IMG/VR virus record: IMGVR_UViG_3300010234_000001
Location: 114,612-178,611 of that record
Origin: a virus
Taxonomy: Duplodnaviria; Heunggongvirae; Uroviricota; Caudoviricetes
Direction: 5' to 3' (one strand)
DNA length: 64,000 nucleotides
Shown: piece after piece, positions 41,882-64,000 of the stretch
How the letters are laid out: each line of letters opens with the position of its first letter
How positions within the stretch are numbered: position 1 is the first letter of the stretch
Notes under the pieces: model-generated
Told to the model about the DNA's origin: nothing
What the model saw: the letters and a program-made list of their open reading frames with translations, nothing else
Database searches by the model: none
Translations under genes and position numbers: made by a program

Positions 41882-41887
41882 ACATTG

Positions 41888-41942
41888 AAATCTCCGGATG
41901 TCTAAATAGTAGTAGAGATACCTAATTTAGCTCCGGAGATTT
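41888..41942 (+). promoter_or_regulatory. HEG leader cassette, copy 1: 11-bp hairpin enclosing late-promoter-like TCTAAATA, 3' arm carries GGAG
   Basis: aaatctccgga ... tccggagattt inverted repeat, 33-nt loop with tctaaatag, GGAG 11 nt before the TTG start of the GIY-YIG ORF. Confidence 0.55.
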
Positions 41943-41948
41943 CCTAAC

Positions 41949-42575
41949 TTGTTCTACACTGTCTATAAAATAACTAACAACATTAATGGCAAATATTATA
42001 TTGGTAAACATCAAACCAAAGACCTTGATGATGGATACATGGGATCAGGTAAACTAGTTCGTTATGCCATAGATAAATATGGTATCGAAAATTTCACCAA
42101 AGAAATCCTTTATATATTTAACACAGAAGAAGAAATGAATACCAAAGAAGCCGAATTAGTTGTTGTTTCGGAAGAAACATACAATTTATGCGAAGGTGGA
42201 AAAGGTGGATTTGGGTATATAAACACATTGGAGAGAAATGGTATATGGATTGCTAAGAGACCAGAACCAGCAAATAAATCTCTTTGGAAATCAAATATAT
42301 CCAAAACAAAAAAAATAGAATATGAAAAAGGTGATAATCCATTACAAAAATTAACATACATGCAGAATATGAAAAGAATTAGAAATTCTGCAAAGGGACA
42401 TGTCGGCAATAAACGATCTGAATTAACTAAAATAAGAATGAGTGAATCCAATAAAGGTTCAAAAAATTCACAATTTGGAACTTGTTGGATAACAAATGGA
42501 AATGAAGTCAAGAAAATTCCCCTAGAGGCACTTGACAGCCACCTAGAAATGGGTTATCGTAGGGGACGAAAATAA
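41949..42575 (+). CDS. GIY-YIG homing endonuclease (Seg-like), copy 1
   Basis: N-terminal YTVYKITNNINGKYYIGKH GIY-YIG motif. Conserved C-terminus NSQFGTCWITNGNEVKKIPLEALDSHLEMGY. TTG start; in-frame TAG 6 codons upstream. Confidence 0.75.
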   Translation: MFYTVYKITNNINGKYYIGKHQTKDLDDGYMGSGKLVRYAIDKYGIENFTKEILYIFNTEEEMNTKEAELVVVSEETYNLCEGGKGGFGYINTLERNGIWIAKRPEPANKSLWKSNISKTKKIEYEKGDNPLQKLTYMQNMKRIRNSAKGHVGNKRSELTKIRMSESNKGSKNSQFGTCWITNGNEVKKIPLEALDSHLEMGYRRGRK

Positions 42576-42717
42576 GAGCTTCGAGTTGCATACTGATACG
42601 ATGGTATGCATGTTAAGGTGAAAAGCACTAGGTTTCGCGTCACCCTTCCAGCATGTTGTTGCGAGCCTATAATTGATGGGGACTGATCGTCCATCCTCGA
42701 ATAGAAAGATTGGAAAT

Positions 42718-43341
42718 ATGCATAAAACGATTAACATAGAAGTCGGTGCGAACAGTGGTTCACACACAAAAAATCTCGCAGGTGAAAATGTTGATATGTT
42801 GTATGCATTTGAACCAAATCCAGAATTATACTTTAATCTAACTCAAGCATACAAAGGTAATGATAAGATTTGTATTCTGCCGTTCGCGGTAAGCGATAAA
42901 GATTCAATGGATTGGTTTAACATATCGAGGGTTGGCGACAAAGGAACAAGTTCACTATATAATTACCACGAAAATCTTGGTAATACGCCGGCCGGTAATC
43001 ATGAAGTATTTACCACACCGTGGGATTATAGAATATTGGTTCCCGTGATAAGAATTGAAACTTTCTTAAATACTTTTGCAAATACCGATTACGTAAAGAT
43101 AAACTATATACATATTGATGCGCAAGGATCGGATTTGAATGTATTAAAGGGAATTGGAAAATATTGGGATGTTCTTAAAGAAGGTGTATGCGAGGCAACG
43201 TTGGATATTCCCCTTTACCAAGACGCGAATAATCAACAGGATGATATTCTAGAATTTCTTGGTAATAAAAATGTTAAGACCGAACTACTAAGACCGCACC
43301 AGAATAGAACGGAAATAGATATTCGATTTTGGATAGATTAA
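42718..43341 (+). CDS. FkbM-family methyltransferase
   Basis: INIEVGANSG (DxGANxG-like) and the FkbM domain pattern. Confidence 0.45.
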   Translation: MHKTINIEVGANSGSHTKNLAGENVDMLYAFEPNPELYFNLTQAYKGNDKICILPFAVSDKDSMDWFNISRVGDKGTSSLYNYHENLGNTPAGNHEVFTTPWDYRILVPVIRIETFLNTFANTDYVKINYIHIDAQGSDLNVLKGIGKYWDVLKEGVCEATLDIPLYQDANNQQDDILEFLGNKNVKTELLRPHQNRTEIDIRFWID

Positions 43342-43488
43342 GATGAATATATATAAAACTATTGATGATGTTCCGATAGTGACATATGCGGTAGTTGCTC
43401 ACAATCATCCCGATATTGATCTTATACTAAAAGCTTATAAGATTAAGGGGCATGGAATTGGAGTTGATTATCAAATGGATTTTTATAA

Positions 43489-43565
43489 GGCTACGTAATT
43501 CAACTGGACAGAAATTCAGCCTTCGAAGCTGAAAGTTGAGGGTTCGAATCCTTCCGTAGTCACCA
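43489..43565 (+). tRNA. tRNA-Arg (anticodon TCG)
   Basis: Acceptor ggctacg/cgtagtc, anticodon stem tcagc/gctga, loop ctTCGaa, T-arm gaggg-ttcgaat-ccttc, CCA. Confidence 0.65.
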
Positions 43566-43582
43566 AAATTTAAGGAGTTATT

Positions 43583-43921
43583 ATGGACTATAAGTGTGTA
43601 AATGGGCATGATGCCTGTGATCAAATGTATCCGGGACCGGAGTGTCCCTATTGCGAAAAAAAGGATTTAATGTTGTTTAAACTTGGTAAAATTTACGTAG
43701 ACGGTCAATATGTTGCATTTGTGGATGTTAATGGCTATAATTGTGCACTTCGGCGTGACGAAGTTGCTCATATAGTCTGGCGTCCCGGTCTAAAAACGTC
43801 ATTGTATGTTGACGGTGATAAAGAGAAAGATATCATTGAAGTGCATACAAAACAAAATAAGTTTCTGTTAACCGAAGCGGATGGCGATGAGTTCGTTTCT
43901 TTAGTGGAACGTATTAGATAA
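43583..43921 (+). CDS. hypothetical zinc-ribbon protein
   Basis: CxxC ... CPYC motifs. Confidence 0.3.
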   Translation: MDYKCVNGHDACDQMYPGPECPYCEKKDLMLFKLGKIYVDGQYVAFVDVNGYNCALRRDEVAHIVWRPGLKTSLYVDGDKEKDIIEVHTKQNKFLLTEADGDEFVSLVERIR

Positions 43922-43941
43922 TTTATTAGTTGAAACAAAAT

Positions 43942-44016
43942 GGGCGACTAGTGCTAACGGGAACACGCCGCGCTTGCAACGCGGAGTTCGGGGTTCGATT
44001 CCCCGGTTGTCCACCA
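43942..44016 (+). tRNA. tRNA-Ala (anticodon TGC)
   Basis: Acceptor gggcgac/gttgtcc (two G-U), anticodon stem ccgcg/cgcgg, loop ctTGCaa, T-arm cgggg-ttcgatt-ccccg, CCA. Confidence 0.65.
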
Positions 44017-44036
44017 AACTTTTGAGGATAAAGACA

Positions 44037-62457: not shown

Positions 62458-62490
62458 GGAAGGGGAATTGTTCCCCTTCCATATTTCATT
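62458..62490 (+). terminator. rho-independent terminator
   Basis: 10-bp GC-rich stem ggaaggggaa/ttccccttcc with a 3-nt loop, then a T-rich tail. Confidence 0.55.
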
Positions 62491-62514
62491 AAGAAAATCG
62501 AAGAGAAATATCTC

Positions 62515-62543
62515 TTGACAACCCGGAAAGTCTACTATATACT
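62515..62543 (+). promoter_or_regulatory. sigma70-like promoter (TTGACA-17-TATACT) upstream of tRNA-Val
   Basis: Consensus -35 and near-consensus -10. Confidence 0.45.
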
Positions 62544-62554
62544 ACAGTCATCAT

Positions 62555-62629
62555 GGACCGCTCGCCAAATGGGAAGGCAACGGCTTTACACGCCGACATG
62601 ACTAGGTTCGATTCCTAGGCGGTCTACCA
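62555..62629 (+). tRNA. tRNA-Val (anticodon TAC)
   Basis: Acceptor ggaccgc/gcggtct, D-arm gcc..ggc, loop ttTACac, perfect T-arm ctagg-ttcgatt-cctag, CCA. Confidence 0.65.
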
Positions 62630-62644
62630 AATCGGAGTTTTATC

Positions 62645-62917
62645 ATGTGGAACTTTATTCATGAAGACGCTTCAATAGACGACATTACTTCCCTCTTTGG
62701 AGACATGGAAGGAAAATTGGAGTTGGTGAATGAGGAATGGGGAACCATTAACGATGAAACCAAACTTGAAGATATCGTGATTCGTATGGGTGTATTCAAG
62801 TCGAAAAGCCAAGCCAGAAAAAACAACTGGTCGGGTGAAATCCCGATGGGATTCCGGGAATGGAAAATCGGCAAGAAACACTTTTGGACATACAAACCAA
62901 TGGAGAATATATTATGA
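62645..62917 (+). CDS. hypothetical protein
   Basis: 90-aa ORF. Confidence 0.3.
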   Translation: MWNFIHEDASIDDITSLFGDMEGKLELVNEEWGTINDETKLEDIVIRMGVFKSKSQARKNNWSGEIPMGFREWKIGKKHFWTYKPMENIL

Positions 62918-63285
62918 CGGATGAAACTGAATTCGTATGGGATAACACAAATAACGATTATAACTATGCGTTCATTGAATTCTTGAAGGATAGTGGATTT
63001 ACGGTTATAGAGCCGGGCGGAAGTCCGTTTGTATGGAAACGAGCAGATTTTTTCGGTCATAACATTCGATATTCGGTGTCTGTCGATAATGTGGAAATGG
63101 GTACAATCGAAGCTAGATTTACTGATCCGGAAAGTCATCGCGTAACAAAGTGGTTGATGTTCGATAGTAACAACGGACGGGCTTTTGATGAAGATGAAGA
63201 TTTCAATAATGCTAAGTACAAATTCGAACGAAAATTAGTATTGGAGAGATTGGACATTGGGCCAGATGGGACGGCTACGCCTTGA
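62860..63285 (+). CDS. hypothetical protein
   Basis: 141-aa ORF. Confidence 0.3.
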   Translation: MENRQETLLDIQTNGEYIMTDETEFVWDNTNNDYNYAFIEFLKDSGFTVIEPGGSPFVWKRADFFGHNIRYSVSVDNVEMGTIEARFTDPESHRVTKWLMFDSNNGRAFDEDEDFNNAKYKFERKLVLERLDIGPDGTATP

Positions 63286-63323
63286 CATGGCGTGATGAAT
63301 GGGTTCGATTCCCTTAATGTCTA
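63252..63323 (+). tRNA. tRNA-Val (anticodon GAC)
   Basis: Acceptor ggacatt/aatgtct, D-arm gcc..ggc, perfect anticodon stem acgcc/ggcgt, loop ttGACat, T-loop ttcgatt. Overlaps the 3' end of the preceding ORF. No CCA. Confidence 0.5.
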
Positions 63324-63328
63324 CATCG

Positions 63329-63378
63329 AAATCTCCGGATGTATAAATAGTCTATAATGGGCTAACATTCGGAGATTT
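63329..63378 (+). promoter_or_regulatory. HEG leader cassette (14-bp stem, TATAAATA)
   Basis: aaatctccggatgt ... acattcggagattt, with TATAAATA at 63342-63349. Confidence 0.55.
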
Positions 63379-63384
63379 CCTAAC

Positions 63385-64000
63385 TTGTTCTATACTGTAT
63401 ATAAAATAACTAATAATATCAACGGCAAATATTATATCGGCAAACATCAGACTAAAGACCTTGATGATGAATACATGGGTTCCGGTAAACTATTGAAACA
63501 TGCTATTAACAAGTATGGTATCGAAAATTTTAACAAAGAAATACTTCATGTATTTGATAATGTAGAGGAAATGAATGCCCGAGAAGCAGAACTTGTTATT
63601 GTATCTGAAGGCACATATAATTTATGCGAAGGTGGACAGGGGGGATTCGGTTACATTAATAGAACTTTAGATCATTTAATTCGTAGTAAGATTCAGAGTA
63701 TAAATGCTAAAAGGAAAGATTATACAAAGATAAATTGGAATGTAGAGGTTCAGTCAAGAAAAAAGAAAAAATGGCATAAAGAAAATCCATTAGAATCCTC
63801 CAAACATATACAACTAGCCACTAAAGCATTTCTAAAAAATGGTCACTCGGAAGAATCCAAAAGTAAGATTGGTAAAGCAAATTCCATACACCAATCTGGT
63901 TCAAAAAATTCACAATTTGGCACTTGTTGGATCACGAACGGAAACGAAGTCAAGAAAATTCCCCTAGAGGCACTTGACAGCCACCTAGAAATGGGTTATC
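63385..64000 (+). CDS. GIY-YIG homing endonuclease, copy 5 (3' end truncated by the window edge)
   Basis: TTG start, LFYTVYKITNNINGKYYIGKH. Open frame to the window end, finishing in the conserved LDSHLEMGY block. Confidence 0.7.
   Translation, partial: MFYTVYKITNNINGKYYIGKHQTKDLDDEYMGSGKLLKHAINKYGIENFNKEILHVFDNVEEMNAREAELVIVSEGTYNLCEGGQGGFGYINRTLDHLIRSKIQSINAKRKDYTKINWNVEVQSRKKKKWHKENPLESSKHIQLATKAFLKNGHSEESKSKIGKANSIHQSGSKNSQFGTCWITNGNEVKKIPLEALDSHLEMGY

Follow-up and report, generated by a model that had tools for sequence, protein, structure and literature searches.

The IMG/VR record IMGVR_UViG_3300010234_000001, a member of the Caudoviricetes, carries within a tRNA gene array eight similar hairpin leaders, six of which precede intact genes for GIY-YIG endonucleases. 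We analysed these leaders and their genes in a stretch of 64,000 nt of the record (positions 114,612-178,611), hereafter the window. ARAGORN called 33 tRNA genes in it, and genes and tRNAs are all co-oriented. Homologues of the T4 genes gp43, gp41, uvsX, gp44, gp45, gp46, gp47, regA and gp55 were present, and the DNA polymerase shared ~46% identity with its counterparts in marine and cyanobacterial T4-like phages; by homology, then, the phage is a distant relative of T4. The gp55-type late sigma factor would be the factor expected to read the TATAAATA boxes found in the leaders. The gp45-type sliding clamp was identified by homology search and PHROG match; in T4 the gp45 clamp is a co-activator of late transcription. 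Of a T4-type late transcription machinery (gp55 sigma, gp33 and gp45 clamp), the two components looked for, the sigma factor and the clamp, are thus both encoded in the window. The features are collected in Table 1.

Table 1. Leaders, upstream tRNAs, open reading frames (ORFs) and late transcription genes of the window (window coordinates; SD, Shine-Dalgarno-like tetramer; c, copy; a slash marks the tRNA/cassette junction)
Feature	Position	Strand	Details
gp55-type late sigma factor gene	1596-2132	+	tblastn with T4 gp55: 37% identity, E 8e-18; phrog_234 'late sigma transcription factor', E 2e-51
gp45-type sliding clamp gene	8916-9590	+	homology search and PHROG match
Degenerate tRNA-Tyr(GUA)-like sequence, adjoining leader 1	41793-41883	+	ends ...ACCACCC-A-C/ATTG, without CCA
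Leader 1	41887-41943	+	arms 41887-41898 / 41932-41943; box TCTAAATA 41901-41908; SD GGAG 41935-41938
segB-like GIY-YIG ORF c1	41949-42575	+	208 aa, TTG start; Pfam SegE_GIY-YIG and NUMOD3; alignment with T4 SegB
tRNA-Cys, upstream of leader 2	45946-46018	+	
Leader 2, subtype B	46022-46073	+	arms 46022-46036 / 46059-46073; box TATAAATA 46036-46043; SD GGGA 46065-46068
segB-like ORF c2	46077-46730	+	217 aa, ATG start
Weak degenerate leader relative before the HNH gene	47021-47069	+	shares GTTGAAATCTCC, CTAAATA and GGAGATTT with subtype A
HNH endonuclease gene	47069-47530	+	phrog_10822, profile positions 7-154 of 245
tRNA-His, upstream of leader 3	48291-48363	+	
Leader 3	48367-48423	+	arms 48367-48378 / 48412-48423; box TCTAAATA 48381-48388; SD GGAG 48415-48418
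segB-like ORF c3	48429-49058	+	209 aa, TTG start; 42% identical to T4 SegB, full length
tRNA-Arg, upstream of leader 4	52655-52729	+	
Leader 4, relic	52733-52784	+	arms 52733-52747 / 52770-52784; mutated box TATAAATG 52747-52754
CCA-less tRNA-Met, upstream of leader 5	54386-54459	+	
Leader 5, solo hairpin	54463-54514	+	arms 54463-54477 / 54500-54514; mutated box TATAACTA 54477-54484; no ORF
tRNA-Asp, downstream of leader 5 and upstream of leader 6	54527-54603	+	
Leader 6, subtype B	54606-54657	+	arms 54606-54620 / 54643-54657; box TATAAATA 54620-54627; SD GGGA 54649-54652
segB-like ORF c6	54662-55288	+	start homologous to other copies is ATG 54662; stop 3 nt before tRNA-Ser (55292)
tRNA-Asn, upstream of leader 7	56234-56316	+	
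Leader 7	56320-56371	+	arms 56320-56334 / 56357-56371; box TATAAATA 56334-56341; SD GGGG 56363-56366
segB-like ORF c7	56377-56979	+	200 aa, TTG start; stop 5 nt before tRNA-Phe (56985)
tRNA-Val, upstream of leader 8	63252-63324	+	
Leader 8	63328-63379	+	arms 63328-63342 / 63365-63379; box TATAAATA 63342-63349; SD GGAG 63371-63374
segB-like ORF c8	63385-64000	+	TTG start; cut off by the window end

The eight hairpin cassettes all lie on the + strand, and the arms of their outer inverted repeats are 12-15 nt long and 93-100% complementary. The strongest perfect short-range inverted repeats of the 64-kb window are among these leader repeats. When folded as RNA the leaders gave energies of -24.5 to -30.1 kcal/mol (z -5.0 to -8.0), and none of 200 shuffles was as stable. 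Their anatomy consists of a 15-bp outer stem, a 5-nt bulge on the 5' side (AUAAA), an inner stem of 6-7 bp and an apical loop of 3-5 nt. The TATAAATA box extends from the last pair of the outer stem through the bulge into the first pairs of the inner stem. For the six intact genes the 3' arm contains an SD-like tetramer (GGAG, GGGA or GGGG) 8-10 nt upstream of the start codon. A search of the 64 kb for the loop motif with up to three mismatches returned the six canonical copies only (0.02 expected by chance), and a covariance model built from these six added just the variants at 41885 and 48365 within the window. The coding strand of the window has six occurrences of TATAAATA, four of them in leaders, and the other strand has none, where ~4 and 2.7 would be expected by composition. 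At gathering score, the curated Rfam families gave tRNA matches only in positions 41000-64000, and none for the hairpins. An intrinsic (Rho-independent) terminator was considered and rejected: the hairpins are followed by CCTAACTTG or CCTAATG and not by a U-run, and 0/8 were called in a terminator scan.

A first-pass annotation made from the sequence alone had placed eight copies on this strand at these same positions, and these, and no others, were found in the window. It had given each copy an 11-14-bp inverted repeat and a GGAG or GGGGA in the 3' arm 8-12 nt before the start; repeats and SDs are there, with the lengths, tetramers and spacing reported above. Its late promoter in the hairpin loop was half right: the box is inside the hairpin, but it is not in the open loop, and in leaders 1 and 3 (copies 41888 and 48368) it is fully paired. 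The box variants that it listed were borne out for seven copies; TATAAATG at 52747 was not among them. It had also put the cassette upstream of every GIY-YIG gene, which holds for the six copies before intact ORFs but not for leader 4 (copy 52734), which precedes a stump, or leader 5 (copy 54463), which stands alone. What it had overlooked is the homology to segB and the position at tRNA 3' ends.

Searches by tblastn with the six proteins detected exactly six paralogues in the window, with 44-66% mutual identity; all six ORFs carry a leader, and no SegB-like ORF lies elsewhere in the window. The proteins matched the Pfam families SegE_GIY-YIG, GIY-YIG and NUMOD3, were 41-42% identical to T4 SegB and collinear with it end to end (tblastn against T4 segB gave 42% with 100% coverage), and T4 SegB was among their best full-length matches in phage records. 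Residues Y6, Y17-I-G, E67 and N79 are invariant in the alignment. Judged by homology, the six genes code for free-standing homing endonucleases of the SegB family. In c6, an in-frame ATG at 54647 falls inside the 3' arm of leader 6. The leader type tracks the protein type, and two subtypes were distinguished: in subtype A the stem reads AAATC(T/C)CC..., the start is TTG and the N-terminus FYTVYKITN; in subtype B these are GAGAGTCC..., ATG and KYYAVYKTTN. Six cassettes of the array are thus intact, one is a truncated relic and one a solo hairpin. In the relic, leader 4 is followed by a 16-codon seg stump (52791-52838, LFYTIYKITNNIKGVI, then two stops); the solo hairpin, leader 5, lies directly upstream of tRNA-Asp with no ORF. 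In both of these gene-less copies the box carries point mutations and the stem is intact. DNA similarity among the copies runs from just after the tRNA to the stop codon, which indicates that the leader belongs to the mobile unit and travels with the gene, as the first-pass annotation had supposed.

Two further observations concern these genes. A 75-aa ORF (52838-53065, +; phrog_14149, function not assigned by PHROG) with its own AAGGAG SD starts exactly at the end of the stump; it seems to have taken the place of a SegB gene body whose upstream leader was kept. Conservation among the paralogues is mosaic: the leader with the first ~330 nt, and the last ~120-160 nt (...NSQFGTCWITNGNEVKKIPLEALDSHLEMGY), reach 88-97% DNA identity, even between subtypes, and the linker is ~20-50% identical. 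This pattern suggests gene conversion among copies or a common DNA-binding module.

All eight leaders begin 4-5 nt past the discriminator base (N73) of a tRNA gene, one of these tRNAs being degenerate. The junction reads N73-C-ATTG in subtype A and N73-CC-CTT or N73-C-TTT in subtype B. Among the tRNAs called by ARAGORN in the window, the seven followed by a leader lack an encoded CCA, while of those with no leader 24 encode CCA and two do not. In 19 related IMG/VR loci the corresponding numbers were 17, 105 and five. Taken together, CCA is encoded by 0/24 leader-followed tRNAs and by 129/136 of the others (Fisher p = 1e-22), and no CCA-encoding tRNA with a leader after it was found in the window or the 19 related loci. 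As a rule of the junction, the cassette replaces most of the encoded CCA of the upstream tRNA. T4 SegB recognises GGTTCRANTCC (the T-psi-C box) and cuts the 3' ends of tRNA genes, preferably right after CCAR (PMC2330249). Judged by that cut position, the cassettes lie at the expected cut site, and the occupied sites lack the CCAR determinant.

The degenerate sequence adjoining leader 1 was rejected as a bona fide tRNA, as neither ARAGORN nor Rfam called it. Its acceptor and anticodon stems read as intact, its D and T stems are poor, and it may be a tRNA gene decaying beside a SegB cassette. There are two tRNA-Arg(UCU) genes, at 41607-41681 and 52655-52729 (+). The first, which no cassette follows, has no CCA and an odd 3' end (..GTTTGGGG). 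The second and tRNA-Arg(UCG) at 43489 have the same acceptor stem (CGTAGTCA-C/ATTG versus CGTAGTCA-CCA), so that here the replacement of CCA is directly visible. No close DNA-level relative of the phage was found: megablast of positions 41000-64000 against phage records gave only ~70-nt tRNA matches, exact-protein look-ups with three window proteins returned no record, and an FkbM-like neighbour protein had no relatives in IMG/VR. The 3' end of tRNA-Asn had no IMG/VR match, and its one match in a metagenome collection was on an unrelated phage. None of these searches yielded a relative usable for comparing occupied sites with alleles free of the endonuclease gene.

IMG/VR was scanned with one paralogue. 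This gave 58 SegB-like loci, in most of which a tRNA ends 55-70 nt before the start codon, and 14 distinct leaders with the design of the window leaders, folding at -21 to -28 kcal/mol. Each is laid out as tRNA, C, AT(T/A)(G/A), 5' arm, TATAAATAG box, short inner stem and a 3' arm with a GG-rich SD, followed by a 5-10-nt spacer and an ATG or TTG start. In all, ~20 divergent metagenomic phage contigs show this arrangement before segB. Together with seven window leaders these made a set of 21 distinct leaders. A whole-leader MAFFT alignment misaligned the 3' arms, and pair counts were therefore taken from an arm alignment anchored at the box and from a covariance-model alignment. In the anchored alignment 91% of the cells of the outer stem were paired and 13/13 pairs had changes on both sides; the covariation score was 0.881, versus 0.24 for shuffles, and 0/500 shuffles reached it. 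When the partner was slid by 1-3 columns as a control, pairing fell to 35-49%. In the covariance-model alignment the outer helix was 97% paired, with 13/15 pairs changed on both sides. G-U pairs outnumbered A-C mismatches (9 vs 2), and the covariance model scored 77-80 bits on the + strand versus 21-31 bits on the - strand; both results favour a structure of the sense-strand RNA. The TATAAATAG box was essentially invariant in 20/21 of these divergent leaders, whereas every stem position beside it varies.

All leaders detected in the related loci stand before an intact endonuclease ORF (15 SegB-like and one HNH), with no solo copies among them. The HNH case (L067, IMGVR_UViG_3300046507_000126, - strand near 12861-12911; phrog_2255) likewise lies after a tRNA and shows the same design of junction and leader, namely CATTG and an 11-bp stem with TATAAATAG in the loop, so the leader type is not limited to GIY-YIG genes. 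Among cultured relatives, hairpins that occlude the ribosome-binding site (RBS) right after a tRNA were found in four phages, the box within the hairpin being CATAAATA in T4, TATAAATA in Vibrio phage Va1, TATAAAATA in Rhizobium phage RHph_I1_18 and TATAAT-like in Klebsiella phage Nispero. A pattern search of IMG/VR with GGTTCGANTCC-N30-TATAAATAGT retrieved for the most part late promoters that precede tRNAs or other genes; in one of the loci that it hit, L062, a leader and a SegB-like ORF are present elsewhere in the locus. More distantly related SegB-like genes (28-40% identity; loci L034, L048-L052, L058 and L059), mostly right after tRNA genes, have another conserved leader (GGTCGTTTTTTGTACTTTCT...TATTTAT...) without the TATAAATA box or a long hairpin, and this lineage presumably uses another promoter type.

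We propose, with a probability of roughly 75%, that the elements are the 5' leaders of SegB-family cassettes in the tRNA array and that they gate expression by a late promoter placed within a hairpin. A cassette is made up of three parts, a junction of 4-5 nt, the hairpin leader and the ORF, and is placed where a tRNA gene ends. The tRNA array would be transcribed early as long precursors; in such read-through RNA the 15-bp stem would pair the SD, and little endonuclease would be made. Late in infection, RNA polymerase with gp55 would start ~6 nt past the TATAAATA box inside the hairpin, a start six nt after the box being the geometry of T4 late promoters. This predicted start lies in or beside the apical loop, so that the late RNA would lack both 5' arms, the SD would be free and the endonuclease could be translated. 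Translation would still be modest owing to the weak TTG starts and the 8-10-nt spacers. In the folding model the probability that the SD tetramer is unpaired was 0.000 in read-through RNA and 0.14-0.51 in RNA starting ~6 nt past the box. We infer from sequence that the boxes act as promoters, that expression is switched in time, and where the paralogues cut. The boxes of both relics, being point-mutated, fit relaxed selection on the promoter after loss of the ORF.

The first-pass annotation had invoked the mechanism known from I-TevI/II/III, with the SD sequestered in read-through RNA and freed in late RNA. Every sequence-level prediction of it held: each cassette folds into a stable hairpin, the modelled SD accessibility differs in the predicted direction, and in the alignment of copies and relatives the outer stem covaries around a nearly invariant box. 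It had further described a module present on all homing-endonuclease genes; this is so for the six GIY-YIG genes, whereas the lone HNH gene of the region has only a weak degenerate version.

Several observations weigh against a late-promoter gate. The arm alignment was anchored on each sequence's own predicted fold and is to that extent biased towards pairing. There are no late (structural) genes in the window, and two things speak for TATAAATA as a late promoter of this phage, the gp55 homology and the conservation of the box. The variant box TCTAAATA is wholly paired in an extended stem in leaders 1 and 3; in front of these two intact genes (41949 and 48429) it may not be a working promoter, and both copies may be permanently throttled. 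The SDs of subtype B (GGGA) are weak, and the start codon with the preceding 8-10 nt lies outside the stem, so that occlusion concerns the SD only. Near T4 segB, no promoter has been mapped according to Brok-Volchanskaya et al. (PMC2330249). The last point, the intact ORFs that copies 41888 and 48368 keep despite a stem-buried TCTAAATA, and the TTG starts, which suit very low expression, would also fit a hairpin that brakes translation permanently and has no working promoter inside it. Trace endonuclease would then come from read-through RNA, and the box would have some other role; trace-level expression was the reading first proposed for T4 segB. Such a brake, however, leaves unexplained why the box is essentially invariant amid varying stem positions, why it is always placed for a late start past both 5' arms, and why both gene-less relics have mutated boxes; the phage also encodes gp55, and a predicted late promoter was marked for T4 segB in a 2010 review (PMC2988022). 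We therefore consider the permanent brake unlikely.

The hairpin might instead serve mainly the upstream tRNA, in 3' processing or insulation of a CCA-less tRNA or as a 5' stabiliser of the mRNA, with a secondary effect on segB. All copies do lie 4-5 nt past a discriminator base, behind tRNAs without CCA, and the solo hairpin 54463 has been kept at full strength (-29.8 kcal/mol) without an ORF. But the 24 window tRNAs and 105 tRNAs of related loci that encode CCA have no such hairpin, the leaders detected elsewhere all precede intact endonuclease ORFs, the 3' arm always has an SD at a fixed distance from the start, and the one solo copy is equally explained as a recent deletion relic; such a role is distinctly improbable. 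That the inverted repeat acts as DNA, be it by forming a cruciform, as a site of recombination, as the end of the cassette, or as an operator for the endonuclease or a mimic of its target, seems to us very improbable. Palindromes are strand-symmetric, and the - strand also scores 21-31 bits in the covariance model; autorepression of I-TevI through an operator overlapping its promoter is established (PMC2988022), and 3' arms such as GGAGATTTCC, as read from the sequence, loosely resemble GGTTCGATTCC. Yet the G-U excess and the far higher + strand score point to RNA, the stem sequence varies freely with no fixed protein-binding sequence conserved save the box, and any likeness between the 3' arms and the T-psi-C box is weak and speculative. 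Finally, the 100% identity of leaders 1 and 3 over ~100 nt might suggest repeats that are conserved merely as recent, functionless duplicates. The paralogous proteins, however, are just 44-66% identical and the fold has been kept through compensatory changes, and unrelated contigs show the same architecture after other tRNAs. Covariation and conservation across contigs refute this explanation, to which we assign next to no weight.

Beyond the late-promoter gate, it is conceivable, though we hold it only tentatively, that the SegB cassette couples a selfish gene and the phage tRNA array in both directions. The idea builds on the finding that insertion always removes the encoded CCA and sets a hairpin of -30 kcal/mol 4-5 nt past the discriminator. 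If it were true, an occupied site without the CCAR cleavage determinant would be immune to cutting, and maturation of the CCA-less tRNA would depend on host trimming of the RNase Z/BN type and on CCA addition. The same endonucleolytic cut would create a hairpin-capped, translationally silent segB mRNA. The hairpin would be kept after loss of the ORF, as in solo copy 54463, because the CCA-less tRNA needs it. A genome with six diverged copies would be an array in which SegB paralogues continually reshuffle or amplify tRNA genes, as in the anti-defence amplification of T6.

The closest known system is T4 segB, whose hairpin was described by Brok-Volchanskaya et al. in 2008 (PMC2330249) and for which an RBS-occluding hairpin with a predicted late promoter is listed in the review by Edgell, Gibb and Belfort in 2010 (PMC2988022). 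As in T4, the proteins are homologous, with the same N-terminal FYxxYKITN; the genes lie directly after a tRNA gene in a tRNA cluster, with a stop that abuts the next tRNA; and a stable RBS-occluding hairpin contains an ATAAATA-type box. The T4 segB hairpin (GAACATAAATAC...TATTTATGTTC) folds at -19.4 kcal/mol. There are also differences: T4 has one copy, not six intact copies and two relics; a perfect TATAAATA lies at the stem/inner-stem junction in four copies here, whereas CATAAATA of T4 is inside the 5' arm; the SD alone is paired here, and both SD and AUG in T4; most copies here start with TTG; and the two-tier stem with the AUAAA bulge is specific to this lineage.

According to those passages of the 2010 review that deal with intron endonuclease genes of the I-TevI type, a late or middle promoter yields a transcript without the hairpin-forming part, which restricts translation to late times, and I-TevI also represses itself through an operator (PMC2988022). 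Those genes lie inside group I introns of protein-coding genes, whereas the cassettes described here are free-standing after tRNA genes; the switch was shown by experiment in I-TevI and is predicted here from sequence. The same source, where it treats mobE of Aeromonas phage Aeh1 (Gibb and Edgell 2007, 2009; in PMC2988022), presents a free-standing gene with an RBS-sequestering hairpin under late-promoter control, but one that is of the HNH family, embedded in nrd genes and in single copy. SegB homologues have been found enriched next to tRNA genes, and SegB drives tRNA amplification in T6: the enzyme cleaves at the T-psi-C motif (RAWTSGAAC on the opposite strand), and units of SegB and tRNA can multiply (Nat Commun 2026, PMC13096335). 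The words 'hairpin' and 'CCA' do not occur in the text of that paper, and neither the leader nor the CCA-less junction is discussed. The copies analysed here are not fresh tandem repeats but paralogues that diverged long ago and stand at different tRNAs.

The mechanism has been described before, for I-TevI/II/III, mobE and T4 segB, and is not new here. New are the covariation support for hairpin and box, the CCA-replacement rule and the two relics, and the main value of the analysis is comparative support for the published model. Covarying stems round an invariant TATAAATAG in many uncultured T4-like phages indicate that the gate is a selected, heritable part of the SegB cassette; for T4 segB, the late promoter within a hairpin had been a prediction only. 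The CCA-replacement rule fits the cut site of T4 SegB and suggests a way in which occupied sites avoid being cut again. A single tRNA array with six diverged paralogues and two relics is unusually dense, which bears on the remodelling of phage tRNA clusters by endonucleases.

The remaining observations concern the surroundings of the cassettes. The end of the HNH gene falls inside tRNA-Leu (47521-47598), and the gene is possibly truncated. The sequence before it (47021-47069) was tried as a ninth leader copy and rejected, as its fold of -8.1 kcal/mol (z -0.8) was not significant. Between c2 and the HNH gene lie ~290 nt of non-coding, locally G+C-rich sequence (46731-47020, +; e.g. GGGGGGGTGGAATTCCCCTCAC), in which no Rfam family was detected at gathering score. 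The other two TATAAATA boxes of the window are near 13716-13762 and at 58841-58848 (both +). The former (TATAAATAG) is followed by a hairpin (-23.6 kcal/mol, z -4.4) and then by tRNA-Leu at 13772; the latter is 28 nt upstream of tRNA-Gly at 58876. Both may be late promoters for tRNAs.

A tRNA at 59308-59380 (+; Rfam 55 bits) has the anticodon UUA, of the ochre-suppressor type, and no encoded CCA, and is followed by a 15-bp hairpin at 59395-59429. It lies just upstream of ORF 59324-60937, whose annotated start it overlaps and which codes for a DUF2828/DUF7788 protein (PHROG 850 'RNA-binding protein'); the RNA may act as a suppressor tRNA or, being tRNA-like, as a partner of this protein. Among the sigma-70-like sites of the + strand are TTGAAA-17-TATAAT at 48057 and TTGACA-17-TATACT at 62515. 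Another strong one, TTGACA-17-TATCAT (11/12 matches), lies at 49015-49043 (+) inside the 3' end of c3, an arrangement that resembles T4, where seg and mob ORFs hold promoters for downstream genes.

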